From assembly GCA_019313185.1 (NCBI GenBank), contig JAFDBS010000140.1, forward strand, positions 377 through 64,376: DNA of 64,000 nucleotides, given 5' to 3'. This document shows positions 4,972 to 60,643 of this stretch, in pieces. The notes below the pieces were generated by a model, which searched no databases, was not told where the DNA came from, and was given only the letters and a program-made list of their open reading frames with translations. The position numbers and the translations under genes were made by a program. This DNA is from Deltaproteobacteria bacterium. GTDB taxonomy: Bacteria; Desulfobacterota; Desulfuromonadia; Desulfuromonadales; BM103. How positions within the stretch are numbered: position 1 is the first letter of the stretch; each line of letters begins with the position of its first letter.

Positions 4972-5622
4972 ATGAAAAAACTGCTGTGTCTTTCTTTAAT
5001 TCTTCTATTCGTGGCCGCTTGCGCCCCTCCGCAGAACAAACAAGAACAGGGTACCCGGGTTGGTGTTGGTGTTGGGGCGGCCGGTGGTGCTCTACTGGGC
5101 CAGGCCATTGGCGGCAATACCAAGGCGACCTTAATTGGCGCTGCTGCGGGGGCCTTAGTGGGTGGCTTTGCCGGCAATCAAATCGGAAAATACATGGATG
5201 CCCAGGAGGCTGCTATGCGACAGGAACTCGCAGCGGTTGAAGCAGCAAACATCCAACGCAATGCTGACGTGTTGGCCGTCACCTTCAAGTCCGACTTTCT
5301 CTTTGATGTCGATTCTGCGAATCTCAAGCCCGGCGCATATGATGAAATCGGTCGAGTCAGCCGTGTCCTCAATCAATATCCGGAAACCAATATCCAGGTA
5401 GCCGGCCATACCGACAGTACCGGTTCTGAAACTTACAACCAGCAACTTTCAGAACGACGCGCTGCCAACGTTGAAAATGCATTGATTGGCCAGGGGGTTG
5501 CCCCAAACCGAATCAGTACGATTGGGTTTGGCGAGGCCGCGCCCATTGCTGACAATAATTCAGAGGCTGGGCGGCAACTGAACCGGCGGGTTGTCATTAC
5601 GATCAAACCCCAAGCATCCTAA
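4972..5622 (+). CDS. OmpA-family lipoprotein (Gly-zipper N-region plus OmpA_C peptidoglycan-binding domain)
   Basis: MKKLLCLSLILLFVAAC is a lipobox signal. It is followed by GVGVGAAGGALLGQAIGG glycine-zipper repeats and a C-terminal NIQVAGHTDSTGS...NRRV OmpA-like motif. GGAG lies 6 nt before the ATG at 4972. Confidence 0.85.
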   Translation: MKKLLCLSLILLFVAACAPPQNKQEQGTRVGVGVGAAGGALLGQAIGGNTKATLIGAAAGALVGGFAGNQIGKYMDAQEAAMRQELAAVEAANIQRNADVLAVTFKSDFLFDVDSANLKPGAYDEIGRVSRVLNQYPETNIQVAGHTDSTGSETYNQQLSERRAANVENALIGQGVAPNRISTIGFGEAAPIADNNSEAGRQLNRRVVITIKPQAS

Positions 5623-15034: not shown

Positions 15035-15598
15035 ATGAAACGTGCTTTGATTGTCGACGATGAACCTTTGTTACGTCGTCAGGTCGCTGAGATCGTAGCG
15101 GGATACGGGTTTGATGAGATACTGGAGGCTGAAAACGGGGTTCAGGCTCTCGAAATTGCGACTCACCAGGAGGTCTTGCTTGTCGTCATGGATGTGGGCA
15201 TGCCTGTTATGGACGGGGTCACGGCTGCTGAAAAAATAGGCAAAGTTAAGCCGTTGCCGATTGTGCTTGTCACCGCGGATACCGGAGCGGAGACCATAGA
15301 ACGAGCACGGCTTGCCGGGGTAATGAATTACGTTGTTAAACCTGTACGGGCCGAACAGTTGTTTGCAGCGGTTGACCTGGCCATCCACCAGTTTGTTGAA
15401 CTGTCCACCTTGCGAGAGGAAGTCAGCAAGCTGAAAGAGACCTTGGAGACCCGCAAGGTGGTTGACCGTGCCAAAGGAGTTCTCATGAAAAAGGGAATGG
15501 ATGAGCCCGCGGCCTTTCGGCGTCTGCAGAAACTGGCAATGGACAAACGCAAGTCCTTGCGGGAAGTTGCCGAAGCCGTTCTGTTGATGGAGGATTAA
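15035..15598 (+). CDS. Response regulator with ANTAR RNA-binding output domain
   Basis: An N-terminal receiver domain (LIVDDEP...DVGMP) and a C-terminal ANTAR helix pattern (VVDRAKGVLMKK...AFRRLQKLAMDKRKSLREVAEAVL). No cognate kinase is adjacent. Confidence 0.88.
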   Translation: MKRALIVDDEPLLRRQVAEIVAGYGFDEILEAENGVQALEIATHQEVLLVVMDVGMPVMDGVTAAEKIGKVKPLPIVLVTADTGAETIERARLAGVMNYVVKPVRAEQLFAAVDLAIHQFVELSTLREEVSKLKETLETRKVVDRAKGVLMKKGMDEPAAFRRLQKLAMDKRKSLREVAEAVLLMED

Positions 15599-17955: not shown

Positions 17956-18702
17956 TTAAGACACTAGATCGGCCATGGTGTGACTTGCATTGTCATGAAA
18001 ACAAAACGTGGCGAGGTGGTCGTAGGAGGTTGGAGTCTTGTTCAAAAAAATCAAGCTGGCCCCTGACTCATAAGCGGCAAGGGGGAACAAATTGGCCGGT
18101 TGCACCGCCAGTGACGAACCAATCATTAACATCAGGTCACAGTTTGTTGCAGCCTGCCAGGCGCGTTGCATGGCCATTTCTGGCATGTCTTGACCAAATG
18201 AGACGGTGTCCGGTTTGACTAAGCCGCCACAAATTTCACAATGCGGGTCGAGGTTCCCCCCGTCGAGCCACGTTTGAACCGTTGCAATCGGCCAGCGATT
18301 GGAGCAACTGAGACATGAGGCCGTCATGTTGGTCCCATGCAGTTCGATGACATCACGATTTCCCGCAGCTTGGTGTAGCCCATCAATATTCTGTGTGATT
18401 ACCGTGTTCAAGACACCTCGACGCTCGAGTTCTGCAAGGCCGAAATGGGCTGCATTGGGTTTTGCGCTTAACAATGCCGGAATGAGTTCGCGACGCATCT
18501 TCCAGTACGAGATACGATTGTCTCTGCTCGCAAGGAACTCCTGGTAGGTTACGATGCGGTAGCGCTCCCAGATGCCTCCTTTCGACCGAAAATCTGACAG
18601 CCCTGACTCGGTTGATATGCCAGCCCCTGAAAAAGCCACCACTTTCCGTTTTTGCCGCAATAGAGTTCTGGCTTGTTCAAGCGCGGGACGGTCGCTATTC
18701 AT
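17956..18702 (-). CDS. cobB: NAD-dependent protein deacylase, Sir2/CobB family
   Basis: GAGISTESGLSDFR, TQNIDGLH, HG, and the zinc ribbon CLSC...CEICGG. 248 aa, the classical sirtuin size. Confidence 0.9.
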   Translation of the reverse strand: MNSDRPALEQARTLLRQKRKVVAFSGAGISTESGLSDFRSKGGIWERYRIVTYQEFLASRDNRISYWKMRRELIPALLSAKPNAAHFGLAELERRGVLNTVITQNIDGLHQAAGNRDVIELHGTNMTASCLSCSNRWPIATVQTWLDGGNLDPHCEICGGLVKPDTVSFGQDMPEMAMQRAWQAATNCDLMLMIGSSLAVQPANLFPLAAYESGASLIFLNKTPTSYDHLATFCFHDNASHTMADLVS

Positions 18703-19361: not shown

Positions 19362-19931
19362 ATGAAAAAATCGCTTCCAAGGATAGCATTCTGGCTGATA
19401 CCCGAACAAAGGTTTTATGACGAGCTCTTGGCCATTATCGTCAAATTGGCGAAACGCTTTGACGCACCGGTTTTTCAACCTCATGTCACAATTTACTGTA
19501 CCAGACGTTCTGATGACCGGGATGAACTCACGCTTTTGACCAGCCTGGCACAGTTGACTCGCCCACTAACGTTGAATGTTGAGACTGTTCAGACCGGGGA
19601 AAGCCTCAACAAAACGTTATTTTTGCAATTACAAAAAACAGCTGAGTGCAACAGCTTGTATCAGGTTTTACATGGCGCTGCATCTAGCCCGTCAGGTTAT
19701 CGCTTCGATCCACATCTCAGCTTACTTTATCAACACACGCCACGCTTCATGCGAGAGGCTTTGGTCTCTCAGCTTGGGTTTCCGTATACGGCAATCAGAT
19801 TTGACAGGCTCCAGGCTGTGGCCATCCCAGAAAACCTCAGCAGTCTGGAATCCTTTTTGGGTTGGCAAACACTGCTTTCAATTCGTCTCGCACCAAGCAA
19901 AACCGCTTGCGAAGACCCGATTTGCCGATAG
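19362..19931 (+). CDS. 2H-phosphoesterase superfamily protein (cyclic phosphodiesterase-like)
   Basis: Two H-x-T/S-x motifs at the expected spacing: PHVTIY and PHLSLLY. About 190 aa. Start at ATG 19362 (MKKSLPR). Confidence 0.6.
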
Positions 19932-19993
19932 GATTGTGTTGGTATGCTTGTGGAAACAAACGCCAACCGGAACATTTCAACAGGGGAATGAAT

Positions 19994-20509
19994 ATGGCAG
20001 CAGAAATCGAGATTGTTCAGGGCGATATAACTCAGATGACCGTTGATGCAATTGTCAATGCGGCCAATCAGGGTTTACATGGTGGAGGCGGGGTTGACGG
20101 GGCAATTCATAGGGCGGCTGGGCCAAGGCTGCTCGAAGAATGCAGGACTCTAGGCGGTTGTCCTACGGGCCAAGCAAAAATCACCAATGGTTACGAGCTC
20201 CCCGCTCACTATGTTATTCATACTGTAGGCCCTGTTTGGCACGGTGGGAATCAGGGCGAGGATGAGCTTTTGGCTAGCTGTTACCGTTGCAGTCTTCACT
20301 TGGCGGATATGCATAATCTCAAAAGCATCGCTTTCCCCTCAATCAGCACCGGTGTGTACCGATTTCCGATTGACAGGGCCTGCCGGATCGCTCTGCAAAC
20401 GACCATTGCGGCCTTGAATGATAGACATTCATTGGAAAAAGTCATGTTTGTTTGCTTTTCCGACCATGACCTGAAGGCGTACCAAGAGGCTTACAGCGAA
20501 TTGACTTAG
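19994..20509 (+). CDS. ymdB: Macro-domain protein, O-acetyl-ADP-ribose deacetylase (YmdB-like)
   Basis: [21 protein letters not shown]...[15 protein letters not shown]...FPSISTGVY aligns closely with E. coli YmdB as I remember it. Confidence 0.9.
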
Positions 20510-20774: not shown

Positions 20775-21902
20775 GTGGACTGGCCCTATTACCGTACACT
20801 CTTTCCAGTCACCCAAAGGTCGGCGTTTTTCAACCATGCGGCGATTTCCGCACCATCGACCAAAGTCATTGCTGCCGTTCAAGAGCTGGTCAGCGAGCAA
20901 GCCTATTTGGGCAGCCAAGGGTACCGTTCATGGATGGACCGGGTCGAAACGGTTCGTCAACAAGTCGCGCGATTTGTCTGTGCAGCGCCAAGCGACATCG
21001 CCTTTGTAGCCAATACTTCCACTGGTTTGGGGCTTATGGCCGCTGGGTTTCACTGGACAGCCGGGGACGCCTTGCTGGTCCCGTCACCGGACTTTCCTGC
21101 CAACGTGTACCCATGGCAGAACTTATCCCAGCGTGGTGTCACGATGATAACAGTACCACGTCGCTCAGGTCGCTTGGCTGTCGAGGACTTTGCCAGACTT
21201 GTGACAGATAACGTACGCATGTTGGTTGTCAGCAGCGTTGATTTTGCAACAGGATATGCAGTTGATTTGAATGCAATAGGACGGTTTTGCCGGGAAAACA
21301 ACATCTTTTTTGGTGTTGACGCCATTCAAAGTCTCGGTGTCCGGCCCATCGATGTCGAAAAGGACCAAATCGATTTCGTGGCTGCAGGTGCCCACAAGTG
21401 GCTGCTTGGTCCAATGGGCATTGGCCTGCTCTATATTTCACCCAGGTTGCGACAACATCTGGATCTGCCACTGGTCGGATGGAAAAGTGTGGTTCATGAA
21501 GAAGATTTTCGTTTGCATTTCCAATTGCGGAAAGATGCCGCTGGGTTTGAGCCGGGCACATTGAACGTGGCCGGCATTGTTGGCTTGGGCGCGGCCATAT
21601 CGCTCTTGGAGGAGGTTGGCCTTGTGCAAATCGAGCAGCGCGTGAGCATCCTTTTGGATGAGTTGGCGGACGGTTTGGCGCAGCGGTCTCTGACTTTAAA
21701 AACGCCCTGGCCTGGCAAAGAGCGGTGTGGCATTTTGAGTTTCACAGCGGGCGATGACGTCTTCGCTCTCTCTAAACATCTGAACGAGCAAGGCGTTGTC
21801 TTGGCTCTGAGGGACGGTGGGTTCCGGCTTTCACCCCATTTCTACAATGACGCCGCCGACATCGAACGCTTCTTTTATGCGCTGGATTCGTTTTCAGGGT
21901 GA
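20775..21902 (+). CDS. Class V aminotransferase-fold PLP enzyme (cysteine desulfurase / C-S lyase-like)
   Basis: 375 aa with the PLP-lysine context AAGAHKWLLGPMGIGLLY. GTG start behind GAAGGGAGGG. Its 3' end overlaps the convergent dipeptidase gene by 28 nt. Confidence 0.85.
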   Translation: MDWPYYRTLFPVTQRSAFFNHAAISAPSTKVIAAVQELVSEQAYLGSQGYRSWMDRVETVRQQVARFVCAAPSDIAFVANTSTGLGLMAAGFHWTAGDALLVPSPDFPANVYPWQNLSQRGVTMITVPRRSGRLAVEDFARLVTDNVRMLVVSSVDFATGYAVDLNAIGRFCRENNIFFGVDAIQSLGVRPIDVEKDQIDFVAAGAHKWLLGPMGIGLLYISPRLRQHLDLPLVGWKSVVHEEDFRLHFQLRKDAAGFEPGTLNVAGIVGLGAAISLLEEVGLVQIEQRVSILLDELADGLAQRSLTLKTPWPGKERCGILSFTAGDDVFALSKHLNEQGVVLALRDGGFRLSPHFYNDAADIERFFYALDSFSG

Positions 21903-22942
21903 CCATTCAGGCCGTTTGGGAGTGCCTCAAGGTAAAATTCAAACCAATTGCCGCCAAGCAGAGCGTCAATTTCGGTTTTCGGATAACCGGCCTGAACCAT
22001 AAGCTCCACCAAGTTTTCCAGTTGGGCATGGCTTTCCAGTCCCGAGCAGTTTGTTTCATACCCGCCGAGATCGCTGCCCAGGGCAAAACCCCGGCTGCCC
22101 CACCGCTGTACAAGATAGTCGATTTGTTCGAAAACCTGCCTGCAGTCAGATTTGCCCGAGGTCGACAGCATCTCTGGCGCAAAACTTAAACCAATTACCC
22201 CGTTTCGGGATAACAATACAGAGATTTGGTCATCGCCCAGATTACGCGGTGTGTCGCAAAAATGCCTAAGCCCGGTATGCGAGCAACAAAGATGACCATG
22301 GAAAGAATCAAGCAGTTCCCAAAAACAAACTTCTGCCAAATGAGCGATATCGATAACAAAACCCCGTGTTTCGAGATTGGGTAACAGGGTCTGACAAGCC
22401 TTCGTTAAGCCTTCGGGGTTGACTGTTGTATTGCCGTCAGCGAGGCGATTTCTGCCGACGTGAGTTAAGCCGATAGTATGCACCCCCCAAACCCTGAGAA
22501 AAGAGGTGCCAATGTCCACCAACGCGTCAGCATTTTCTAAAAGAAGCATTTGACTGGTGAAACCTGGGGTGCCCCAAGCTGTTTCCAACTCCTCGCGTGT
22601 CCGAATTGTCGACAGGCTTGCAGTCAGGGCCTGCATAAGGAAAAGTTGCTCAGTCACATGTTGAACTGCCGTTGAACCATTAAATTTATCATTGCAAAAG
22701 ATTGCGCTGTTAAAAATTCTTACCTTGCCATCGCGGAGCGAAGATGGAGAGATGGGACCCCCACCTTTCTTTTCAAAAGGCAGGATGCACTGCTCTTTCA
22801 TAAGAGAATACAAAAGGTCTACGTGGCCGTCAAAACTCGACTGCCATGGGCTGACTTCATCGCTGGGCAAGCAGGTAGTCACTATGGATGCGTTCAAAAT
22901 GGTTTCGGTGGTTGCGGATGGTCCACTGGATGGTGCCCTCAT
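21875..22942 (-). CDS. Membrane-dipeptidase family (peptidase M19) protein
   Basis: M19 hallmarks FDGHVDL, VIDIAHL, CCSHTGLRHFCDTPRNLGDDQI and ALGSDLGG. ATG 22942 overlaps the methyltransferase gene by 86 nt. GTG 22882 and TTG 22870 are in-frame alternative starts. Confidence 0.8.
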   Translation of the reverse strand: MRAPSSGPSATTETILNASIVTTCLPSDEVSPWQSSFDGHVDLLYSLMKEQCILPFEKKGGGPISPSSLRDGKVRIFNSAIFCNDKFNGSTAVQHVTEQLFLMQALTASLSTIRTREELETAWGTPGFTSQMLLLENADALVDIGTSFLRVWGVHTIGLTHVGRNRLADGNTTVNPEGLTKACQTLLPNLETRGFVIDIAHLAEVCFWELLDSFHGHLCCSHTGLRHFCDTPRNLGDDQISVLLSRNGVIGLSFAPEMLSTSGKSDCRQVFEQIDYLVQRWGSRGFALGSDLGGYETNCSGLESHAQLENLVELMVQAGYPKTEIDALLGGNWFEFYLEALPNGLNGHPENESSA

Positions 22943-23780
22943 CCAAAATTTTCCAGGCAGGCAACAATTTGTTTTCCAGTAGATGTCGAACGTTTATGTG
23001 AGCATGCCCGGCAAACGAACCGCTCGGAACGCCTCCAAGCCAAGCAGTTTTGGGGGCGATTTCTGTCGACCACGACCAAGGGTCTGCCACCAACAGCTGT
23101 GCTCTGGTGTCTGATGTGACCCGGTTTAATTCGTCAAGGTGCTTGAGCGGCGCGGGAAGCTTGTCCAGCAAATTCAGAGAGCTGCTGCACTGGAAAACAG
23201 ACTTCGGGAAAGGCAAAGCCAAGGCGTCTGCCAAGACGAACTCGACCCGATTAAGAGGCCAATCATGAGGCAAGCGGACTTCCCGATGTTCGGTCAATTC
23301 GCCTTCCATGATTAAGTCGAACGACAAGCGACCTTCGCGAGTAAGAAGGCGAGCAGTTTGAATGAAGGCATGAGAGCGATCAATGCCAACAGCAAGCTCA
23401 GCGTTGCGCGCTAATTCAAACGTCAGTCTGCCGACTGCGCAACCGGTGTCCAAGGCAACCCCGGACGAGGCATTGAGCATTGATGACCAGCTGAGGTAGG
23501 CTGTATTCTGATCGGGGTCATCGAAAAGATCGGCAAAGTGACTCCAGAGATAAGCGGATACGACCGGTAGCTCTGTATATTTACCGACCAACGCCAAGTC
23601 GCTCTGTGGAAGAAGGCAGGCCATGCCATGGTCAATAGGGTAGTTTTTCCGGCAACCAGGGCAGGTTAATGTGGCCGTGTAAATATCTCCTTGGCGGGTT
23701 TCTTGGATATGTGCCGCTAGCGGGCGCTCTTCCGGTAGACAACCTGGGCAGACCACCAGATCAAGAAGTTGTCTGTGCAT
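22857..23780 (-). CDS. Class I SAM-dependent methyltransferase with N-terminal Trm112-like zinc knuckle
   Basis: The N-terminus LLDLVVCPGC...LTCPGCRKNYPI is a Trm112p-like CxxC/CxxC element. SAM motif I is VALDTGCAVGRL, followed by a post-I acidic loop (GIDRS). Confidence 0.8.
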   Translation of the reverse strand: MHRQLLDLVVCPGCLPEERPLAAHIQETRQGDIYTATLTCPGCRKNYPIDHGMACLLPQSDLALVGKYTELPVVSAYLWSHFADLFDDPDQNTAYLSWSSMLNASSGVALDTGCAVGRLTFELARNAELAVGIDRSHAFIQTARLLTREGRLSFDLIMEGELTEHREVRLPHDWPLNRVEFVLADALALPFPKSVFQCSSSLNLLDKLPAPLKHLDELNRVTSDTRAQLLVADPWSWSTEIAPKTAWLGGVPSGSFAGHAHINVRHLLENKLLPAWKILDEGTIQWTIRNHRNHFERIHSDYLLAQR

Positions 23781-23796: not shown

Positions 23797-23837
23797 GCCC
23801 AAAGAAGGCATCTGCGCCACCAGATGCCCTCTTTGGC
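23797..23837 (-). promoter_or_regulatory. Strong intra-operon stem-loop between the repeat-peptide gene and the methyltransferase gene
   Basis: The minus-strand RNA GCCAAAGAGGGCAUCUG-GUGGCG-CAGAUGCCUUCUUUGGGC forms a stem of about 17 bp with one bulge and one G-U pair. It is followed by UUGUCUUC. It starts 17 nt after the peptide stop and ends 17 nt before the next ATG. Confidence 0.5.
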
Positions 23838-23853: not shown

Positions 23854-24024
23854 TCAAGCCGGGCCGTGGCAGCTCGGCGCATGGCAACTGGGCGCATGGC
23901 AACTCGGTGCATGGCAACTGGGCGCATGGCAACTCGGTGCATGACAGCTCGGTGCATGACAACTCGGTGCATGACAGCTGGCTAGACTAGAAACTTTTTT
24001 TTCAACTTTACGGGTTTTCAGCAT
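23854..24024 (-). CDS. 56-aa Cys-His pentapeptide-repeat peptide, candidate RiPP precursor
   Basis: ATG at 24024 lies 7 nt after AGGAGG, which directly follows the radical SAM stop codon. Translation: MLKTRKVEKKVSSLA SCHAP x7 SCHGPA. The longer ORF-track version (to 24078) would overlap the upstream gene. Confidence 0.7.
   Translation of the reverse strand: MLKTRKVEKKVSSLASCHAPSCHAPSCHAPSCHAPSCHAPSCHAPSCHAPSCHGPA
23860..23979 (-). repeat. Eight tandem 15-bp units encoding SCHAP/SCHGP
   Basis: Read directly: AGC/T TGT/C CAT GCA/G CCG/C repeated. Units 1-7 differ only at third codon positions. Unit 8 has CAC and GGC. Confidence 0.95.
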
Positions 24025-24037
24025 TGTACTACCTCCT

Positions 24038-26074
24038 TCATTCTGGGGTTTCGGGTTGAACCGCAGCCAAGAGTTCAAGCTGGCTTAATTCTCGTGCTGC
24101 ATCTTGGCACGTGGCCAGAAAATCGGCGTCTGACATTGTTGTTCCGTAAGTTGGCTTCAATTTAACAGCGATCTCTTTTAAGGTGATTGTCCCTGAGCAA
24201 TGCATGAGAAAGTCCCGGCCAAAAGCATTGACCTCAGTCACCTCAAGTTCTGTGTTCTGCTGACGAAATGCTAAATGGCAGGGGCTTTTCGTATAGCTCC
24301 GCACGTAGTTGCCAGCTTTCAGATCGGCAACGATAGATGGCATATCATAGTCAAACGATTCAACAATGACATTTTTGGGTCGCCGTGGCTGCCAATCATG
24401 TAAATGACACAAATCTATATTAACGGGTTTTTCGGATTTGGCAAATTCGGCAACCCCAATGGCGGCACATTCGTACAAGAGAACATTTTCCAGGTGTGAC
24501 CAATCGGTCTCATTTTGCAGACCGCAGAGTTTGGCGCGGGCGAATCCTGGAAAATGTTGAAAACACTTAGCGGCATTCATGTCAGCCATGTGCCCTGCGG
24601 TCCTATCGACCTGTCGTACGAAGCTTAGAAACAGATCGGCAGGGGATTCCATGAACGCTTTGCAAAGCAGCAAAAAGGTTTTGGGAAATAAATTTATGAT
24701 CAGGGGAAAACCATTGGCAAGGCAGGCGAGGTCAGGCAAAGGCAACGCTGGACAGGAAATGTTCCAGAAGCTGCTGAACACCTCCGGATCGCTGTCGATC
24801 ATTTGCTCGTCTTCTGGAAGTCTTGAGCCCTTGTCAAACTCCAAGCCGAGGGCAAAATACGTATCCACGTTTCGCGTAAGACTTTTAAAATATTTTGTGT
24901 GCAGGTCTGTCCCCGGCAAAACGGTCGGAAGTTGCATCAATGGATTACTGTTGCCCTGAATGCCACACGCGAGAGCGAGGAACAATGTCGCATCAACATC
25001 ATCCTTTTGCTCCTCAGGAAACCCGATCACGAAGCTGAGAGTCGGAACCAACCCAACTTCGGTTGTTTCGCGGACGCGTGAGAACAAAATCTTTTGATCG
25101 ACGCGCTTCCGGATAAAGCTCAGCGTGCGAACGGACCCTGAATCAATGCCATAACACATCGATTCGCAACCAGCTTCACGCATAAGGTCAAGAAGTTTCG
25201 CGTCGACAGTGTCGAGACGAGAAATACAGTACCAGGGAGTGGTCTGCAGGCTGGCACTGAGGACGGCTTGGCAAAAGTGCTCAACGTAGCTTCGATCCGC
25301 TGTGAATTGGTCATAGGCCAAAAGGAAGCAATCTGCGCCATGAGCCTCTCGAAGGGTCCTCATTTCTCGAATAATTCTTGATACGGAATACGTGCGTGTC
25401 CGCCGTTTCCAAAAGGCCGCCTCTGAACAGTAAATACAGTCGTGCGGACATCCGCGTCCAACCTCAAGAATGGCAATGCTCCGCGGCAGTTCGCAGGCCT
25501 GGCGATAAAAGTCGAGGGATTGGACCTTGCTGTAATCAGGCAGCGGCAAGGTGTCGAGGTTAGACAGCAGCGGGCGATCAGAGTTATTGAGGACGGCAGC
25601 GCCACGTCGCCAAGATAGCCCCGCGACTTCTTGCAAATTACCTCCCTTGTCCAGGGCTTTCACCAGTTCGGAAAATGTAACCTCTCCCTCGCCCCGTATG
25701 ACCATGTCAACTTGAGGGAACCTTTCGAGCGTTTCTTTCGCAAGAAACGAGGCGTTGTGGCCGCCCACCACAACCTTCAGTTTGGGCCGGACCTCTTTCA
25801 GGCGTTGCGCAATTTGCAGGATCGGCGGATAGGTTACGCATTGAGCGCTGAAAGCGACCAGTTGAGGCTCTGTATCCAAGATCTGCCTGGCAGAATCATG
25901 ATAAATGTCGCGGCCGAATGGCAACGCTCCGGAACGCAGGGCAAGAACCTGATCAAGAATGGTGACCGTGTGCACACAGGGTTCGAGCATCGACGCAAGG
26001 TTTATAAGCCCCAGAGGGGGCAAGTTGTACATGGACTGATGATAAAAAGGTGGAAAAACGAAAGTTATATTCAT
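24038..26074 (-). CDS. B12-binding-domain radical SAM enzyme with C-terminal PqqD-like peptide-recognition segment
   Basis: An N-terminal Rossmann region (KLKVVVGGHNASF...DMVIRGEGE), the cluster motif GCPHDCIYC (nt 25427-25450) and a C-terminal ...EVNAFGRDFLMHCSGTITLKEIAVKL...DADFLATCQDAARELSQLELL. The likely start is MNITFVFPPF at 26074. The upstream in-frame ATG at 26113 is an alternative. Confidence 0.88.
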   Translation of the reverse strand: MNITFVFPPFYHQSMYNLPPLGLINLASMLEPCVHTVTILDQVLALRSGALPFGRDIYHDSARQILDTEPQLVAFSAQCVTYPPILQIAQRLKEVRPKLKVVVGGHNASFLAKETLERFPQVDMVIRGEGEVTFSELVKALDKGGNLQEVAGLSWRRGAAVLNNSDRPLLSNLDTLPLPDYSKVQSLDFYRQACELPRSIAILEVGRGCPHDCIYCSEAAFWKRRTRTYSVSRIIREMRTLREAHGADCFLLAYDQFTADRSYVEHFCQAVLSASLQTTPWYCISRLDTVDAKLLDLMREAGCESMCYGIDSGSVRTLSFIRKRVDQKILFSRVRETTEVGLVPTLSFVIGFPEEQKDDVDATLFLALACGIQGNSNPLMQLPTVLPGTDLHTKYFKSLTRNVDTYFALGLEFDKGSRLPEDEQMIDSDPEVFSSFWNISCPALPLPDLACLANGFPLIINLFPKTFLLLCKAFMESPADLFLSFVRQVDRTAGHMADMNAAKCFQHFPGFARAKLCGLQNETDWSHLENVLLYECAAIGVAEFAKSEKPVNIDLCHLHDWQPRRPKNVIVESFDYDMPSIVADLKAGNYVRSYTKSPCHLAFRQQNTELEVTEVNAFGRDFLMHCSGTITLKEIAVKLKPTYGTTMSDADFLATCQDAARELSQLELLAAVQPETPE

Positions 26075-26344
26075 GTCGACCTGTTTGATGTTGAGCAAAC
26101 CAGGTCTAAGCATAACAAAGACTCATGCGTTCGCCAAGTGGAGAGGCCTGAACAGTCTAGATGCAATGTCGACGATCATCGAAAACGGTGGAACGCGGCA
26201 GGCAAAGCGCCGGATCAAAACTTGGAATTAAATTTGCAAAGACTAAGAAATGTTATGCCGATTGACTGTCCAGGTTTAATAGTATTGTTAAATCGCGGTT
26301 ATTAAATCGTCTTATAACTTATGACTGTTCATTAATCCTTTCAG

Positions 26345-27540: not shown

Positions 27541-27617
<77 letters not shown>

Positions 27618-27723
27618 ACAAAGGGTTGTCACACTAGCGGAAAGCCTTGTTCTTGTCAAGGCATCTCTGGTTTCTTGCCGAATCAACCAAAATTGGAGTA
27701 TAAGGTCAGCAAGGATTTATTTT

Positions 27724-28776
27724 ATGGATATGACCATTTCTCTCGAGCAAGCGCTCACTCTCCGCAGCAAGGGAGCCCTGATGGTTGACGCTCGCAGCCC
27801 TGAGGAATATGCCGAGGCCACCATACCGGGGGCGGTCAATGTCCCAATTCTGAATAACGCCGAGCGCGCTGAGATTGGCACACTGTACAAGCGCGAAGGG
27901 AAATTAATCGCTCGCCGGCGTGGTGTGGAAATTGTTGCGCCAAAAATTCCGGTTTTGGTCGAGAGGGTTGCCGAAATGCGGGCAAGTGAAACCAGCCTTG
28001 CCGTTGTCTTCTGCTGGCGAGGCGGTTTGCGCAGCCGGGCCATGGCCCAGTTTCTAGATTTAGCTGGTATCCCGGCACGGCAGATGGCCGGTGGGCACAA
28101 GCGATTTCGCCAACATGTATTGCGTTTCTTCTCTGAAGCAGAATGGGGCCGGATGATCGTCTTGCGAGGGTTGACCGGTGTTGGCAAGACGAGAATTTTG
28201 AACAATTTGGCCGCAATAGGCCATGAGGTGATTGACCTTGAGGGGTTGGCCAGTCACCGTGGCAGTGCGTTCGGCAACCTTGACTTGCCCGCTCAGCCGA
28301 CACAAAAGATGTTCGAGGCGTTACTGTGGGACCGTCTCCAGCGCATTCCACCGACCAGTCATGTTTTGGTTGAGGGTGAAAGCCGCTGGATCGGCCGTCT
28401 GCAGCTGCCAGTCAGAGTCTACCAAGCCATGCAGCAAGAAACCTGCATTTGGTTGAATGCGTCATTAGCGACCCGGGTGAACAACCTTCTTGAAGACTAC
28501 TCGGCGCTGACTGAGGCCAAAGAGCGATTTGTCGAGCCCATTCAAGCCCTTAAGGAACGTCTCGGCGCACAGGCTGTTGAGGAGCTCCTGTCCTATCTGG
28601 ATAGGGGGGCATGGGACGACCTCGTCAGGGAACTGATGACGCGCTATTATGACCCGCTTTATCGTCATAAACAACCAAAGGAATGCATTGAAGTCAATGT
28701 CGAATCCCTTGGGGCAGGGCTGGATGCCGTGCTCGATGCCGTCACCCAAGTCCTTGCACCAGTTTCGGAACGATGA
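27724..28776 (+). CDS. selU: tRNA 2-selenouridine synthase
   Basis: A rhodanese domain with CWRGGLRS, then the P-loop LRGLTGVGKTRIL. Start at ATG 27724 (MDMTISLEQ), because the longer ORF-track version overlaps the tRNA. Confidence 0.85.
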   Translation: MDMTISLEQALTLRSKGALMVDARSPEEYAEATIPGAVNVPILNNAERAEIGTLYKREGKLIARRRGVEIVAPKIPVLVERVAEMRASETSLAVVFCWRGGLRSRAMAQFLDLAGIPARQMAGGHKRFRQHVLRFFSEAEWGRMIVLRGLTGVGKTRILNNLAAIGHEVIDLEGLASHRGSAFGNLDLPAQPTQKMFEALLWDRLQRIPPTSHVLVEGESRWIGRLQLPVRVYQAMQQETCIWLNASLATRVNNLLEDYSALTEAKERFVEPIQALKERLGAQAVEELLSYLDRGAWDDLVRELMTRYYDPLYRHKQPKECIEVNVESLGAGLDAVLDAVTQVLAPVSER

Positions 28777-29050: not shown

Positions 29051-30172
29051 TCAACTTTCTGCCGAGAGCTTTTCTAGAAAAGACGTCACTTTAGGTGTAA
29101 ACTTCTCTGGTTCGACCAAAAACGAATCATGGCCATAGTCTGACTCGATCAGGTGGTATTCCACGGGTTTGTTAAGACAACGCAAAACGTTAACAACTTC
29201 TTCTGTCTGGTAAGGCGCGTATAGCCAGTCTGAGGAGAAAGCAAACCAGATGGACGGACAGGCCAAATTATTCAGGGCGCTCTCCAAACTGTCGAAACCC
29301 CAGCTTACATCATACAGGTCGAGGGACTTCGCCAGATAAAGAAAGCTGTTGGTGTCAAAGCGCTCAACGAAGTTCCTACCGTTGTAAGTCAGGTATCGCT
29401 CAATTTCATATTGTCCAAAGAAATCGAACTGTCCGTCGCGGGCAGAAAAGCGCCGGCCAAATTTCAATTGCATAGAGGTGTCGGAGAGGAACGAAATATG
29501 ACCAACCGCCCGCGCCAAAGCCAAACCATCCGCGGGGGGGTGCTCAGGCTTGTAATTCCCTTTGCGCCACATCGGGTCATTGTAAATTGCCTGCCTCGCC
29601 AAGGCGTTCAAGGCGATCGCCATTGGCGACGGTCGGCCTGTCCCTGCGATCGGAATGATCGAACGAACATGCTCCGGATAGTGCACAGCCCATTCCAAGG
29701 CCTGCATCGCACCCATGCTCCCACCAATCACGGTCAGTAATTGTTCAATACCCAGGTGGTCAATAAGTAGTTTTTGAGCCCTGACCATGTCGCGGACCAT
29801 GAGAACAGGAAATTGCAGATGATAAGGTTTTCCGGTACGCGGGTTGATGCTTGACGGCCCGGTGGAGCCGAAACATGAACCGATAACGTTAGAGCAAATC
29901 ACAAAATACTGGTCCGTATCGAGCACTTTGCCCGGTCCAATCATGCCGTCCCACCAGCCCGGCTTGCGATCATCCGGACCATGTCGTCCTGCAGCATGAG
30001 CATCGCCAGTCCAGGCATGTGCGACCAAGACAGCATTCGATTTACTGCGGTTTAACGTCCCGTAGGTTTCGTAGGCCAAAGTCAAGGGGCCGAGAACACG
30101 GCCACTTTCCAGCTGTAGTTCAACGTCGAAATCGACGGATCTGGTCTTGACGATCCCTACACTCTCATTCAT
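29051..30172 (-). CDS. metX: Homoserine O-acetyltransferase
   Basis: An alpha/beta-hydrolase with [12 protein letters not shown] (nucleophile elbow) and the typical MetX N-terminus (...[21 protein letters not shown]). Start at ATG 30172, downstream of the riboswitch terminator. Confidence 0.9.
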
Positions 30173-30189
30173 GCAAAACCCCGTAAGGC

Positions 30190-30390
30190 AAAAAAACAGG
30201 CCCCTACCCAAGAAATCGTGAGAAGGGGCCTGAAGATACATTGACAAGATCGTACCAGCGGCTCCGTCCTCATCTCCCCTGCCGTTTGACGCAGGTCGGA
30301 TTTAGCACCTGGCACTCACCTGAAGAACCTTCAGCGAGTCGGTTGCTGTGGCTTCGCAGGGCCTGTCCCTCCACCACTCTTGATAAAGAC
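30190..30390 (-). promoter_or_regulatory. SAM-I (S-box) riboswitch with terminator, leader of metX
   Basis: The minus strand reads TTATCAAGAGTGGTGGAGGGACAGGCCCTGCGAAGCCACAGCAACC...GGTGCTAAATCCGACC...GGGGAGATGAGGACG. It is followed by CAGGCCCCT...AGGGGCCTG and T7 (30190-30232). Confidence 0.85.
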
Positions 30391-31676: not shown

Positions 31677-32831
31677 TTAGCCCCTTGCAAGGGCCTGGTC
31701 GAGATCAGAAATAATGTCTTCAACGCTCTCGATCCCCACTGACAGACGCAAAAGCGATTCACAGACCCCCAGCCGTTTGCGTTGTTCGACCGGAATGTCA
31801 GCATGAGTCTGGACAGCGGGTAAAGTCATCAGACTTTCCACACCACCAAGGCTTTCGGCAAAAGAAATACGGCGAAGCTTCTGCAGAACCTGCTTAGCAT
31901 GGTCAGCATTGCCGAGTCGAAAAGAAACCATGCCGCCATGGCCATCCGACTGAGCGATGTTGCGTTGATGGCCCGGGTGGCTCGGCAAACCAGGATAGTA
32001 GACCTGTTCAACGGCGGGGTGTGCCAGGAGCCATTCTGCTACGGCTTGGGCATTGTCACAATGACGTTCCATGCGTAACCCGAGTGTTTTCAAACTGCGC
32101 ATCAGAAGCCAGCAGTCTTGAGGGGAGAGGATGGCCCCTGTTGAGTTTTGCAGGAAGTAGAGACGTTCACCCAAGTCTGAATTGCGAGCCACCAGGACGC
32201 CAGCACAGAGATCGTTGTGCCCGCCGAGATACTTGGTCGCAGAATGGATAACAACATCGGCCCCATGCTCGAGAGGCCGCTGCAAAGCCGGTGTTAAAAA
32301 GGTGTTGTCAACGCACAGCAGCAGCCCACGCTCCTGGCAAAGGCTGGCCAGGGCGGGCAAGTCGGCAATGCCGAGAAGCGGGTTGCCGGGGGTTTCTATC
32401 AACAAGGCTTTGGTGTGCGGCGTGCACGCCGCAGCAACCTTAGAGGAATCGGTGGTGTCGACATAACTGACGCTGAGCGCAAACTTTCCAAAAATCTGGT
32501 CAAGCACCCTGTACGTTCCTCCATACAGGTCCTCTGAAACCACCAAGTGATCTCCTGCGGAAAAATGGAGGAATAACGTTGTCAACGCGGCCATTCCCGA
32601 AGAGAAAGCCAGCCCGCGGCTGCCCCCTTCAAGGTCCGCCAACGCTTCTTCCAAAACCTGCCGGGTCGGATTCCCAGATCGGGTGTAATCGAAGCCGGTG
32701 CTTTCTCCGACCGCGGGATGAGCATAGGTCGAGCTCGGATAGATTGGAAAGCTGATCGCCCCGGTTGCAGCATCGCGCTTGACGCCGGCTAGGACGCTTC
32801 GAGTGTGTCTGCTAACGCCTGAAGTTGTCAT
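31677..32831 (-). CDS. Cys/Met-metabolism PLP enzyme (cystathionine gamma-synthase / O-acetylhomoserine thiolyase family)
   Basis: 384 aa with PIYPSSTY, DYTRSGNPTR and SATKYLGGHND. Start at ATG 32831 behind GGAGGC. Paralogue of the downstream gene, arranged like the Bacillus metI-metC pair. Confidence 0.82.
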   Translation of the reverse strand: MTTSGVSRHTRSVLAGVKRDAATGAISFPIYPSSTYAHPAVGESTGFDYTRSGNPTRQVLEEALADLEGGSRGLAFSSGMAALTTLFLHFSAGDHLVVSEDLYGGTYRVLDQIFGKFALSVSYVDTTDSSKVAAACTPHTKALLIETPGNPLLGIADLPALASLCQERGLLLCVDNTFLTPALQRPLEHGADVVIHSATKYLGGHNDLCAGVLVARNSDLGERLYFLQNSTGAILSPQDCWLLMRSLKTLGLRMERHCDNAQAVAEWLLAHPAVEQVYYPGLPSHPGHQRNIAQSDGHGGMVSFRLGNADHAKQVLQKLRRISFAESLGGVESLMTLPAVQTHADIPVEQRKRLGVCESLLRLSVGIESVEDIISDLDQALARG

Positions 32832-32867
32832 GTTTTGGTTGCCTCCATTCAAAGATAGTGAGGCTAT

Positions 32868-33064
32868 CAAAAAAGCCCCTTCTCGATGAGAGAAAGGGCT
32901 TGCAGACACATTGGCATGCTCTGAAGCTCCGCTCTCATCTTCCCCACGGCATCTTTGACGCGTGGGCGGGATTTAGCACCTGACATCCAAGCACGTTGCG
33001 TGCAATTTGAACCGGTTGCTGTGGCGTCTTTGGGCCCGTCCCTCAGCCACTCTTGATGAAAACG
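32868..33064 (-). promoter_or_regulatory. SAM-I (S-box) riboswitch with terminator, leader of the two-gene transsulfuration operon
   Basis: The minus strand reads TTCATCAAGAGTGGCTGAGGGACGGGCCCAAAGACGCCACAGCAACC...GGTGCTAAATCCCGCC...GGGGAAGATGAGAGCG. It is followed by an 11-bp stem (AGCCCTTTCTC/GAGAAGGGGCT) and T6. Confidence 0.85.
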
Positions 33065-58173: not shown

Positions 58174-58249
58174 GGGCCCATAGCTCAGCTGGCAGAGCCA
58201 CCGGCTCATAACCGGTCGGTCCCAGGTTCGAATCCTGGTGGGCCCACCA
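58174..58249 (+). tRNA. tRNA with CAU anticodon, probably tRNA-Ile2 (lysidine) rather than elongator Met
   Basis: GGGCCCATAGCTCAGCTGGCAGAGCCACCGGCTCATAACCGGTCGGTCCCAGGTTCGAATCCTGGTGGGCCCACCA. C4-G69 and C5-G68 in the acceptor stem resemble E. coli tRNA-Ile2. Identity beyond the anticodon is inferred. Confidence 0.93.
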
Positions 58250-60252: not shown

Positions 60253-60643
60253 GGTCGGAGACAACCAGGCGATCGCCGGCTTGTCAACAGGACAAGCGGG
60301 AGGAAAGTCCGGGCTCCGCAGGGCAGGATGGTCCTTAACAAGGACCGGGGGCGACCCCAGGGACAGTGCCACAGAGAGCAGACCGCCTTGAAGTGCCCAG
60401 GCATTTCGAGGTAAGGGTGAAAGGGTGAGGTAAGAGCTCACCAGTGCCGGTGGTGACATCGGCAGCTTGGTAAACCCCATCCGGAGCAAGACCGAATAGA
60501 GGAGTGTTTGAGAGCGGCCCGCTCGAGACTCCTGGGTCAGGTCGCTTGAGGCTGACGGCAACGTCGGTCCTAGAGGAATGATCGCCGCCCCGTCAGGGCA
60601 ACCAAAGCGGGGAACAGAACCCGGCTTACGGCTCTCTCCGGCC
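60253..60643 (+). ncRNA. rnpB: RNase P RNA, bacterial type A
   Basis: GGGAGGAAAGTCCGGGCTCC (P4 5' strand), ...GGTAAGGGTGAAAGGGTG..., ...ACAGAACCCGGCTTA. P1 pairs GGTCGGAGA (60253-60261) with TCTCCGGCC (60635-60643). The ends are approximate. Confidence 0.9.

Follow-up and report, generated by a model that had tools for sequence, protein, structure and literature searches.

A conserved Cys-His repeat peptide encoded beside a B12-binding radical SAM enzyme and an ovothiol-lineage methyltransferase in anaerobic Thermodesulfobacteriota

Sulfur and selenium versions of one scheme stand side by side in the pathways described for ovothiol (OvoA, OvoB and OvoA-MT or OvoM) and ovoselenol (OvsA and OvsM): Cys and His are joined, a pyridoxal phosphate (PLP) lyase cleaves the C-S bond, and N-methylation comes last. 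To our knowledge, all known ovothiol and ovoselenol routes need O2, owing to OvoA or OvsA. The anaerobic alternatives EanB and MES are named for ergothioneine only (PMC11030361). Here we analyze a stretch of 64,000 nucleotides (nt) from a Deltaproteobacteria bacterium of the Desulfuromonadales (GenBank assembly GCA_019313185.1, contig JAFDBS010000140.1, positions 377 to 64,376 of the forward strand), called 'the window' below, in which a small gene made of eight Ser-Cys-His-Ala-Pro (SCHAP) repeats follows the gene of a B12-binding radical S-adenosylmethionine (SAM) enzyme. Comparison of related loci shows that such a precursor gene is conserved together with this predicted B12-type enzyme, which carries a domain resembling the recognition element (RRE) of peptides that are made by ribosomes and modified after translation (RiPPs), and usually with genes for a methyltransferase of the ovothiol lineage, a dipeptidase and a lyase-like PLP enzyme. 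We propose that a thiohistidine-class small molecule is made from the Cys-His units of this ribosomal peptide, on an O2-independent route to ovothiol A, a reading that we hold tentatively and put a little below an even chance. Relatives that encode selenocysteine (Sec) point to a selenium version of the pathway.

The cluster has in common with the ovothiol and ovoselenol pathways a methyltransferase of the same lineage, in sequence as well as in predicted fold, and the proposed chemistry would follow theirs step for step. It differs in that it has neither OvoA nor OvsA, the non-heme iron, O2-dependent sulfoxide or selenoxide synthases; no synthase of the OvoA type was found among the Pfam-scanned cluster genes of the window or the called genes of related loci. 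The C-S step would here fall to a B12-binding radical SAM enzyme acting on a ribosomal peptide, and the selenium would be supplied by a UGA-encoded Sec, not by a selenosugar. The cluster is hosted by strict anaerobes, and its lyase is a class-V, SufS-like enzyme without the Cys loop.

The use of a ribosomal peptide as a scaffold for a small molecule has precedents. In the synthesis of pyrroloquinoline quinone (PQQ) from PqqA, of mycofactocin and of 3-thiaglutamate and the pearlins, a radical SAM enzyme or other metalloenzyme acts on a short peptide, and peptidases free the product. Those peptides have one reactive site and no Sec, whereas up to 13 identical sites are found here, and the kinship is conceptual only. 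An M19 dipeptidase homologue paired with a PLP enzyme is known from gliotoxin biosynthesis, where GliJ and the PLP C-S lyase GliI unmask a thiol from a Cys conjugate; that system is fungal, its conjugate derives from glutathione, and its PLP enzyme belongs to another fold family.

Among the RRE-containing, B12-binding radical SAM maturases of RiPPs, ApyD methylates the C-beta of Tyr in its precursor (PMC11117315). Like the enzyme of the window, ApyD and its kind combine a B12-binding domain, a radical SAM core and a peptide-binding domain, a putative one in the window enzyme, and go with a ribosomal precursor; a single Tyr is methylated by ApyD, however, whereas the putative substrate here is a 3- to 13-fold Cys-His repeat. 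SbtM/SbtA is a precedent for a Sec-containing RiPP precursor (Lewis et al. 2021, Biochemistry 60:3347, cited in PMC13188914). In this 'selenobiotic' thio(seleno)oxazole system, too, a Sec-or-Cys precursor stands beside a radical SAM maturase in anaerobic Deltaproteobacteria, but the precursor is a different one, and the dipeptidase, the lyase and the ovothiol-type methyltransferase are absent. SbtM is reportedly a SPASM-type radical SAM enzyme without a B12 domain, giving another product; Pfam finds no SPASM match in the window enzyme. A full-text search of the literature returned no account of thiohistidines being made on a peptide template or by a radical SAM enzyme, nor of the peptide system itself.

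The repeat gene and the enzymes encoded with it

The SCHAP repeat is a real small gene, unannotated before, with eight Cys-His units. Its elements are:

23854 to 24024, minus strand: precursor peptide gene, 56 codons and a stop, MLKTRKVEKKVSSLA-(SCHAP)x7-SCHGP-A-stop
23980 to 24024, minus strand: leader of 15 residues, Lys-rich (from the translation)
23860 to 23979, minus strand: core of eight 15-nt units x-Cys-His-Ala/Gly-Pro (translation, Tandem Repeats Finder)
24032 to 24037, minus strand: Shine-Dalgarno sequence AGGAGG, 7 nt 5' of the peptide ATG
23799 to 23836, minus strand: hairpin with a 16-bp stem and a weak T tail, terminator- or attenuator-like, set 18 nt downstream of the peptide stop and ending 18 nt short of the methyltransferase start

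The peptide ATG lies 14 nt downstream of the TGA that ends the 691-residue open reading frame (ORF) of the radical SAM enzyme, on the same strand. The initial annotation had listed the eight tandem units (23979 to 23860) with synonymous differences only in units 1 to 7, and the listing matches the sequence exactly. Four of the 15 columns vary among these seven units, all at third codon positions and all synonymously; by simple counting, the chance that four variable columns all hit the five third positions is 5/1365 = 0.004. Unit 8 brings two more changes, to the synonymous codon CAC and to GGC, which turns Ala into Gly. Tandem Repeats Finder describes the array as 7.1 copies of period 15, with 88% matches and no indels. 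The five alternative frames of the array yield only stop-ridden or featureless repeats, and no second copy of the Cys-His repeat was found in the window, where nothing but these eight Cys units matches the repeat (C/stop)-H-[ASG]-P. The hairpin that follows the gene may be an attenuator or a stabilizer, raising the precursor over the enzyme transcript.

Peptides of this family, now exposed, are essentially invisible to annotation. In a collection of 5.8 billion proteins, no entry has a word in common with the window peptide, and the exact window and Geoalkalibacter peptides are absent. No gene is called in the gap after the radical SAM gene in four related loci (L015-L018), and most gene callers overlook the peptide. 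The sole record that calls it is the complete genome of Geoalkalibacter halelectricus (CP092109.1, 3349947-3366873), where a 57-residue, nine-unit peptide is encoded with the radical SAM enzyme, the methyltransferase, the M19 dipeptidase and the PLP enzyme. Pfam gives a weak similarity to high-sulfur keratin, and no NCBIfam model claims the peptide or the radical SAM enzyme at its cut-off. The only NCBIfam match of the peptide is the 'Cys-every-fifth' RiPP peptide CefA (NF038108), which shares the five-residue Cys period. Membership in CefA was rejected: the window peptide scores 17.7 bits and six of seven relatives tested 14 to 19.6, against a cut-off of 30, the Sec-type peptide gave no match, and it is the periodic Cys, not the leader, that is matched.

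Related loci came from an exact protein look-up (4), from a metagenome scan with an alignment of the radical SAM enzyme (80) and from Geoalkalibacter (2). A single radical SAM protein searched against genome contigs returned one close relative (L001, 49% identity) and distant B12-binding radical SAM enzymes. A small ORF directly follows the radical SAM gene in more than 50 of the related loci, giving 49 distinct orthologous peptides. The carriers are anaerobic Thermodesulfobacteriota, and the cluster is widespread in the sediment members. The leader consensus is M-L-K-[IVT]-K-K-[VI]-E-K-K-V-S-x-A-A, and the Shine-Dalgarno sequence is kept, visible as ..KEV.. or ..KGGD.. immediately before the start. 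The first supposition, of a coding repeat whose peptide is held by purifying selection, is borne out by a start, Shine-Dalgarno sequence, leader and frame conserved in about 50 orthologues. The leader, Lys-rich and without a hydrophobic stretch, is not a secretion signal, again in agreement with the initial annotation.

Scoring the repeat number and the codon changes in orthologues, as had been suggested there, gave the same answer. The cores have the form (x-C-H-[A/S/G]-P)n, with n = 3-13. Among the 340 units of the 49 peptides, position 1 is A in 155, S in 152, G in 17 and T in 7 (the remainder being other residues), and position 4 is A in 273, G in 40 and S in 26. Between adjacent units we counted 707 synonymous versus 192 non-synonymous codon changes; the latter are confined to positions 1 and 4 of the unit, and leave the first two codon positions of Cys, His and Pro untouched. 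As the units were collected by the pattern xCHxP, the invariance of these three residues is partly built in; the cores are nonetheless tiled almost fully by the pattern, with few departures from it, such as the short linkers of L062, L063, L070, L072 and L077.

The coding interpretation had initially been opposed to that of a strain-variable, non-coding variable-number tandem repeat (VNTR). The variability is real: in L024 (7063-7203) and L025 (7063-7248), radical SAM genes that are 100% identical over 2025 nt are followed by 6 and 9 units, respectively, a 45-nt in-frame indel that reflects either a very fast change of copy number or an assembly collapse or expansion of the repeat. The non-coding part of that alternative does not hold, the change being in frame, with start and Shine-Dalgarno sequence kept. 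The array is VNTR-like in copy number while its frame, start and Shine-Dalgarno sequence are always kept, and the coding reading stands.

A few loci depart from the common arrangement. L041 holds two precursor copies (2743-2868 and 5334-5489), the second of which has a degenerate tail (..CHALHDSHEPRRADC) and may be a decaying duplicate. In L001 (6004-9021, a Syntrophobacter metagenome-assembled genome, or MAG), L020, L056 and L057, the dipeptidase or the methyltransferase comes directly after the radical SAM orthologue and the locus shows no peptide gene; perhaps the precursor gene lies elsewhere, or it belongs to a type that went unrecognized. L057 also has two more ORFs of about 600 residues directly upstream.

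Four enzyme genes of the window belong to the cluster:

24038 to 26113, minus strand: B12-binding radical SAM enzyme, 691-residue ORF (Pfam, NCBIfam, AlphaFold2 model); the conserved start is probably Met14 at 26074
22857 to 23780, minus strand: Trm112-like zinc ribbon and SAM methyltransferase of the OvoA-MT/OvoM/OvsM lineage (NCBIfam, PDB profile search, Foldseek)
21875 to 22942, minus strand: M19 (renal-type) dipeptidase (Pfam); the ORF overlaps the methyltransferase 3' end, and the true start may lie further downstream
20775 to 21902, plus strand: class-V PLP enzyme, convergent (Pfam, NCBIfam, SufS alignment)

The radical SAM enzyme matches PF02310 with 64 bits (cut-off 32.1) and PF04055 with 60 bits (cut-off 29.5), and has 599 homologues at E <= 1e-20, the named ones being from Desulfuromonas, Geobacteraceae, Desulfobacteraceae or Thermodesulfobacteriota MAGs. 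All three Cys of its SAM cluster motif, C222-x3-C226-x2-C229, are invariant in the family alignment. So are nine Cys outside this CxxxCxxC motif (C92, C207, C262, C281, C296, C316, C320, C517 and C669), and C454 is nearly so. These residues suggest an auxiliary Fe-S cluster, which would, as far as we know, be unusual for B12-type methylases.

The AlphaFold2 model of this enzyme (predicted local distance difference test score, pLDDT, 89.9) ends in a beta3-alpha3 domain of the RRE/PqqD type (residues 582-678). Pfam returns nothing for the C-terminus of the window enzyme, even at E = 10; several homologues have precomputed matches to PF05402 (PqqD). The initial annotation had pictured the units as substrates of an iterative enzyme, and the place of the gene, directly behind that of a B12-binding radical SAM enzyme whose C-terminal domain is RRE-like, argues for such a putative role. 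The top NCBIfam match is ApyD (NF050148; E 4.6e-82), but with 276 bits against a cut-off of 750 and only residues 18-451 aligned (profile positions 9-431 of 645) the enzyme does not qualify as an ApyD equivalent. Its top Foldseek matches are AprD4, TokK, CysS, TsrM, MgmA and OxsB, at no more than 21% identity, followed by the sulfur-inserting enzymes MiaB and RimO. AprD4 is a dehydratase, not a methylase, and has a B12 domain but is not known to make use of B12. The reaction is fixed neither by the domains, nor by the fold neighbors, nor by the nearest family.

For the methyltransferase, the best NCBIfam match is ovoA_Cterm (TIGR04345, labeled 'putative 4-mercaptohistidine N1-methyltransferase'), with E 3.6e-29 over 232 of 242 profile positions, 19 orders of magnitude ahead of the next. 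When PDB sequences were searched with a profile built from 32 members of the family, OvsM (5.8e-34), OvoA (9.8e-33) and OvoM (4.7e-30) came out on top, the next match being at 1e-11 over only about 45 residues. In a Foldseek search with the AlphaFold2 model (pLDDT 88.1), the top 11 matches are all OvoA, OvsM or OvoM (E 1e-18 to 1e-15, template modeling score 0.80, target-normalized), followed by a gap to 2e-8. The motifs EGEL, SP[YF][TS]W and W[LI]GG are common to the family and to OvoA, OvoM and OvsM, and are invariant in the family. By sequence the enzyme is best described as a member of a sister subfamily to the TIGR04345 equivalogs, with a Trm112-like zinc ribbon added. Its closest relatives, in sequence and in modeled fold, are only the 5-thio- and 5-selenohistidine N-methyltransferases OvoA-MT, OvoM and OvsM, from which a substrate of this kind is predicted. 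OvsM methylates 5-selenohistidine, not histidine (PMC11030361).

The PLP lysine and the carboxylate Arg are retained in the PLP enzyme, which by E. coli SufS numbering has K226, D200, Q203, R359 and R379. It lacks the SufS Cys364 loop, however, through a deletion of 15 residues, as do all 17 aligned orthologues, and because this loop carries the persulfide-forming Cys the enzyme is not a desulfurase. These features are compatible with a candidate C-S/C-Se beta-lyase acting on S-substituted cysteine. The M19 dipeptidase matches PF01244 with 168 bits (cut-off 26) over profile positions 8-315 of 319, and its PDB matches include renal dipeptidase and GliJ.

Co-occurrence was counted in the 45 loci with at least 3 kb of downstream sequence (31 Cys-type or other, 14 Sec-type), and 40 of them contain at least one of the three accessory genes. 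The 31 Cys-type or other loci have the methyltransferase in 21 cases, the M19 dipeptidase in 19 and the PLP enzyme in 14; among the 14 Sec-type loci, all have the dipeptidase and 10 the PLP enzyme. In seven loci, a gene for an M3 oligoendopeptidase is inserted as well. Neither an exporter nor a dedicated leader protease was seen to be conserved across loci, a weak negative given the diversity of transporters.

Selenocysteine-type relatives

A second type of peptide gene, present in 23 loci, has an in-frame TGA at the Cys position, followed by H-[A/G/S]-P and a hairpin resembling a Sec insertion sequence (SECIS):

L064, L065, L068, L069, L073, L079-L081, L083, L084, L086, L087, L089-L095, L097, L098, L015 and L078: Sec-type loci (for example, L080 5973-6017)

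The ORF opens with the leader of the family and continues as ...NEASTTYVVP[T/S/M/N]-stop-H-A-P-T-E-S-P-V-R-R-stop. The in-frame stop is TGA in all 22 genes found by the pattern search, and likewise, by inspection, in L015, a Desulfuromonas MAG. Beyond the TGA, the His, Ala, Pro and Thr codons vary synonymously, and the next 17 to 20 nt are near-invariant as DNA. They form the hairpin AUCUCCG-GUU-CGGAGAU, which begins 14 nt after the UGA, the spacing over all Sec-type genes being 13 to 14 nt; at equal spacing, L015 has GGUCCG-GUU-CGGACC and L078 has GGGU.CAUG-GUU-CAUG.ACCC. There are thus three distinct stems with compensatory changes around one shared G-GUU-C loop, the covariation having been judged by inspection and with RNAfold, since a MAFFT alignment of the SECIS region misplaced L078. 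As the hairpin is kept in L015, L078 and L090, where the ORF ends before or at its start, it is an RNA element rather than the trace of a coding constraint.

The loop sits where a bacterial SECIS would place it, GGUC being at +22 to +25 after the UGA in E. coli fdhF and GGUU at +24 to +27 in the Sec-type peptide genes. An Rfam scan gave no SECIS-type match, and whether Rfam includes a bacterial SECIS family is uncertain. An in-frame UGA aligned with Cys, conservation downstream of it and a SECIS-like hairpin are hallmarks of bacterial Sec decoding, and Sec insertion is predicted on these grounds. The window itself has no UGA/SECIS copy, as judged by the absence of a TGA-CAY-N3-CCN...GGTTC match.

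Cys and Sec occur side by side in some loci. L084 and L087 have genes of both kinds, (SCHxP)n and Sec-type; the peptide of L078 is a hybrid, with three Cys-His units and a terminal Sec-His. Because Cys and Sec are interchangeable in front of His, the chalcogen at this place is likely to be the chemically important atom. One Sec-His unit can apparently replace many (5-13) Cys-His units; each Sec would require its own SECIS.

The unit has a parallel in molybdopterin enzymes. The active-site motif of formate dehydrogenase and formylmethanofuran dehydrogenase is U-H-x-P (PMC13188914), so that the tetrad (Sec/Cys)-His-x-Pro is identical to that of the peptide unit. In E. coli FdhF, residues 140-144 read U-H-G-P-S, as at the ends of L015 (10094-10111) and L090 (3582-3599), with a GGU-loop hairpin at similar spacing. 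There is no further similarity, however, and in leader and genomic position the Sec-type genes belong with the Cys-His peptide family. The match may be coincidental, or a formate dehydrogenase gene may have been the source of the Sec-type unit with its SECIS.

Proposed route and alternatives

In the route that we propose, the radical SAM enzyme would bind the Lys-rich leader and proceed along the core, joining the sulfur or selenium of each Cys or Sec to the imidazole C5 of the following His in an O2-independent two-electron oxidation. A plausible course would be H-abstraction from the His C-beta, the position attacked in Tyr by ApyD. Peptidases would cut the Pro-punctuated core to give the cross-linked Cys-His unit, and the M19 dipeptidase would open the S-substituted Cys-His dipeptide. 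Beta-elimination of the Cys skeleton by the PLP enzyme would then leave 5-thiohistidine or 5-selenohistidine, and N-methylation of 5-thiohistidine by the methyltransferase would yield ovothiol A. From each peptide, eight molecules of product would be had for its eight units, and repetition of the unit would serve the yield per translation event.

It is conceivable, though noticeably short of an even chance, that strict anaerobes make ovothiol-class thiohistidines, and 5-selenohistidine in the Sec-type loci, from encoded Cys-His and Sec-His in this manner, a B12-binding radical SAM enzyme forming the C-S or C-Se bond without O2. If true, there would be three firsts: a route to ovothiol that is independent of O2; a radical SAM ligase of imidazole and chalcogen, with a new reaction type for B12-binding radical SAM enzymes; and a small-molecule selenometabolite that takes its selenium from UGA-encoded Sec, which would link the Sec-decoding machinery to small-molecule selenium metabolism. 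An anaerobic route to the 5-thiohistidine series has been missing, and the cluster is a concrete candidate for it that can be tested.

Several points speak against this proposal. The proposed chemistry is a prediction from genes and modeled structures, and we know of no precedent for the 9-membered Cys(i)-His(i+1) thioether ring. Most B12-binding radical SAM enzymes transfer methyl groups, and ApyD, the curated family closest to this one, does so to the C-beta of Tyr; by analogy, the enzyme may simply methylate the peptide. With 102 bits, the methyltransferase is under the 170-bit cut-off of TIGR04345 and has the extra Trm112-like domain, and it could act on a peptide-bound imidazole. It is found in only 1 of the 14 Sec-type loci, the PLP enzyme in only 24 of the 45 loci, and 5 of the 31 Cys-type loci have no accessory gene within the available flank. 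Finally, most loci have no enzyme assigned to cleavage of the His-Ala or Pro-x bond.

Three other explanations of the peptide, and the objection that it is no gene at all, were considered. The modified peptide could itself be the end product, as in a classical RiPP: the radical SAM enzyme would C-methylate or cross-link the units, the methyltransferase would N-methylate peptide-bound His, and the result would be a peptide with a metal-binding or redox role inside the cell; the dipeptidase and the PLP enzyme would serve salvage or be unrelated neighbors. This is the main rival, and we consider it possible but doubtful. The closest curated family of the radical SAM enzyme, ApyD, is indeed a peptide C-beta methyltransferase with an RRE, the structural neighbors TokK, CysS, TsrM and MgmA are methylases, and in some loci the radical SAM gene and the peptide gene stand alone. 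Moreover, dense Cys-His arrays are, as a matter of general chemistry, good Cu, Zn and Ni ligands, and L016-L018 have genes for hydrogenase Ni maturation at a distance of about 4 kb. What such an end product leaves unexplained is the kinship of the methyltransferase to enzymes that methylate free thio- and selenohistidine, the M19 dipeptidase of 33 of the 45 loci (and of every Sec-type locus, 14 of 14), the loss of the Cys loop in the linked PLP enzyme, and the equivalence of one Sec-His to 5-13 Cys-His units; nor is there a conserved exporter. Even with a modified peptide as the product, a multi-core Cys/Sec-His class of RiPPs would be new.

An unlikely alternative is that the peptide is a sacrificial chalcogen carrier. 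The radical SAM enzyme would use Cys or Sec as sulfur or selenium donor to another acceptor, or would S- or Se-methylate them, the dipeptidase and lyase would recycle the remains, and His would be only a recognition element or catalytic neighbor. The interchange of Cys and Sec does mark the chalcogen as the key atom, the sulfur-inserting MiaB and RimO are the next fold neighbors after the B12 class, and the some ten invariant Cys outside CxxxCxxC could hold an auxiliary cluster. However, His and Pro are present in all 340 units (which were selected as xCHxP, deviations being rare) and His always comes right after Cys or Sec, the lineage of the methyltransferase points to an imidazole-chalcogen product, and no gene related to another acceptor is conserved.

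We regard as very improbable that an unmodified peptide binds or buffers metals and is merely co-transcribed with the enzymes. Eight Cys-His dyads would make a plausible soft-metal site, and the weak Pfam similarity to high-sulfur keratin goes in the same direction, but in more than 50 loci the gene strictly follows that of a radical SAM enzyme whose C-terminal domain is RRE-like, the leader is of the conserved kind that enzymes typically recognize, there are Sec variants with one unit only, and no metal transporter or regulator is conserved. A soft-metal ligand array, which the initial annotation had suggested, is not supported as the primary function. The ovothiol-type methyltransferase, the dipeptidase, the C-S-lyase-like PLP enzyme and the single-unit Sec-His variants suggest instead that the Cys-His dyad is consumed chemically rather than used as a ligand. 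Lastly, the objection that the array is a non-coding VNTR or an assembly artifact, to which the 6 versus 9 units beside identical radical SAM genes might have lent weight, is effectively refuted by the conservation of frame, start, Shine-Dalgarno sequence and leader across radical SAM enzymes 45-64% identical, by the excess of synonymous changes (707 versus 192, with codon positions 1 and 2 of Cys, His and Pro untouched) and by indels that are always multiples of 15 nt.

Other features of the window

The gene of MnmH, a tRNA 2-selenouridine synthase, lies at 27559-28776 (plus strand), about 1.5 kb upstream of the radical SAM gene start, and its presence indicates that the organism of the window uses selenium. 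Its TTG-started ORF overlaps a tRNA-Met gene (27541-27617, minus strand) and the NCBIfam match begins at residue 66, so that the real start is further in. MnmH and the CBS protein encoded upstream were rejected as members of the cluster, as their adjacency is not conserved in other loci. Peroxiredoxin and thioredoxin neighbors, considered as a hint of a redox role, were likewise discarded, being limited to the L016-L019 clade.

On the other side of the cluster are genes for a SIR2 deacetylase (17956-18702, minus strand), a Macro domain protein (19862-20509, plus strand) and an ANTAR response regulator (15035-15598, plus strand). The Macro and ANTAR genes are syntenic in L015-L018 and L024-L026, and in L015 the ADP-ribosylation genes DraT and DraG lie between them. 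This synteny is only that of the Desulfuromonadales clade, and the three genes were not retained as cluster members; the group is probably an unrelated ADP-ribosylation module.

Two SAM riboswitches (30267-30389 and 32932-33062, both minus strand) are located just upstream of the ORFs 29051-30247 and 31677-32909, respectively, which by eye look like methionine/cysteine metabolism genes. The window also contains a class A RNase P RNA (60257-60643, plus strand) and a second tRNA-Met gene (58174-58249, plus strand).

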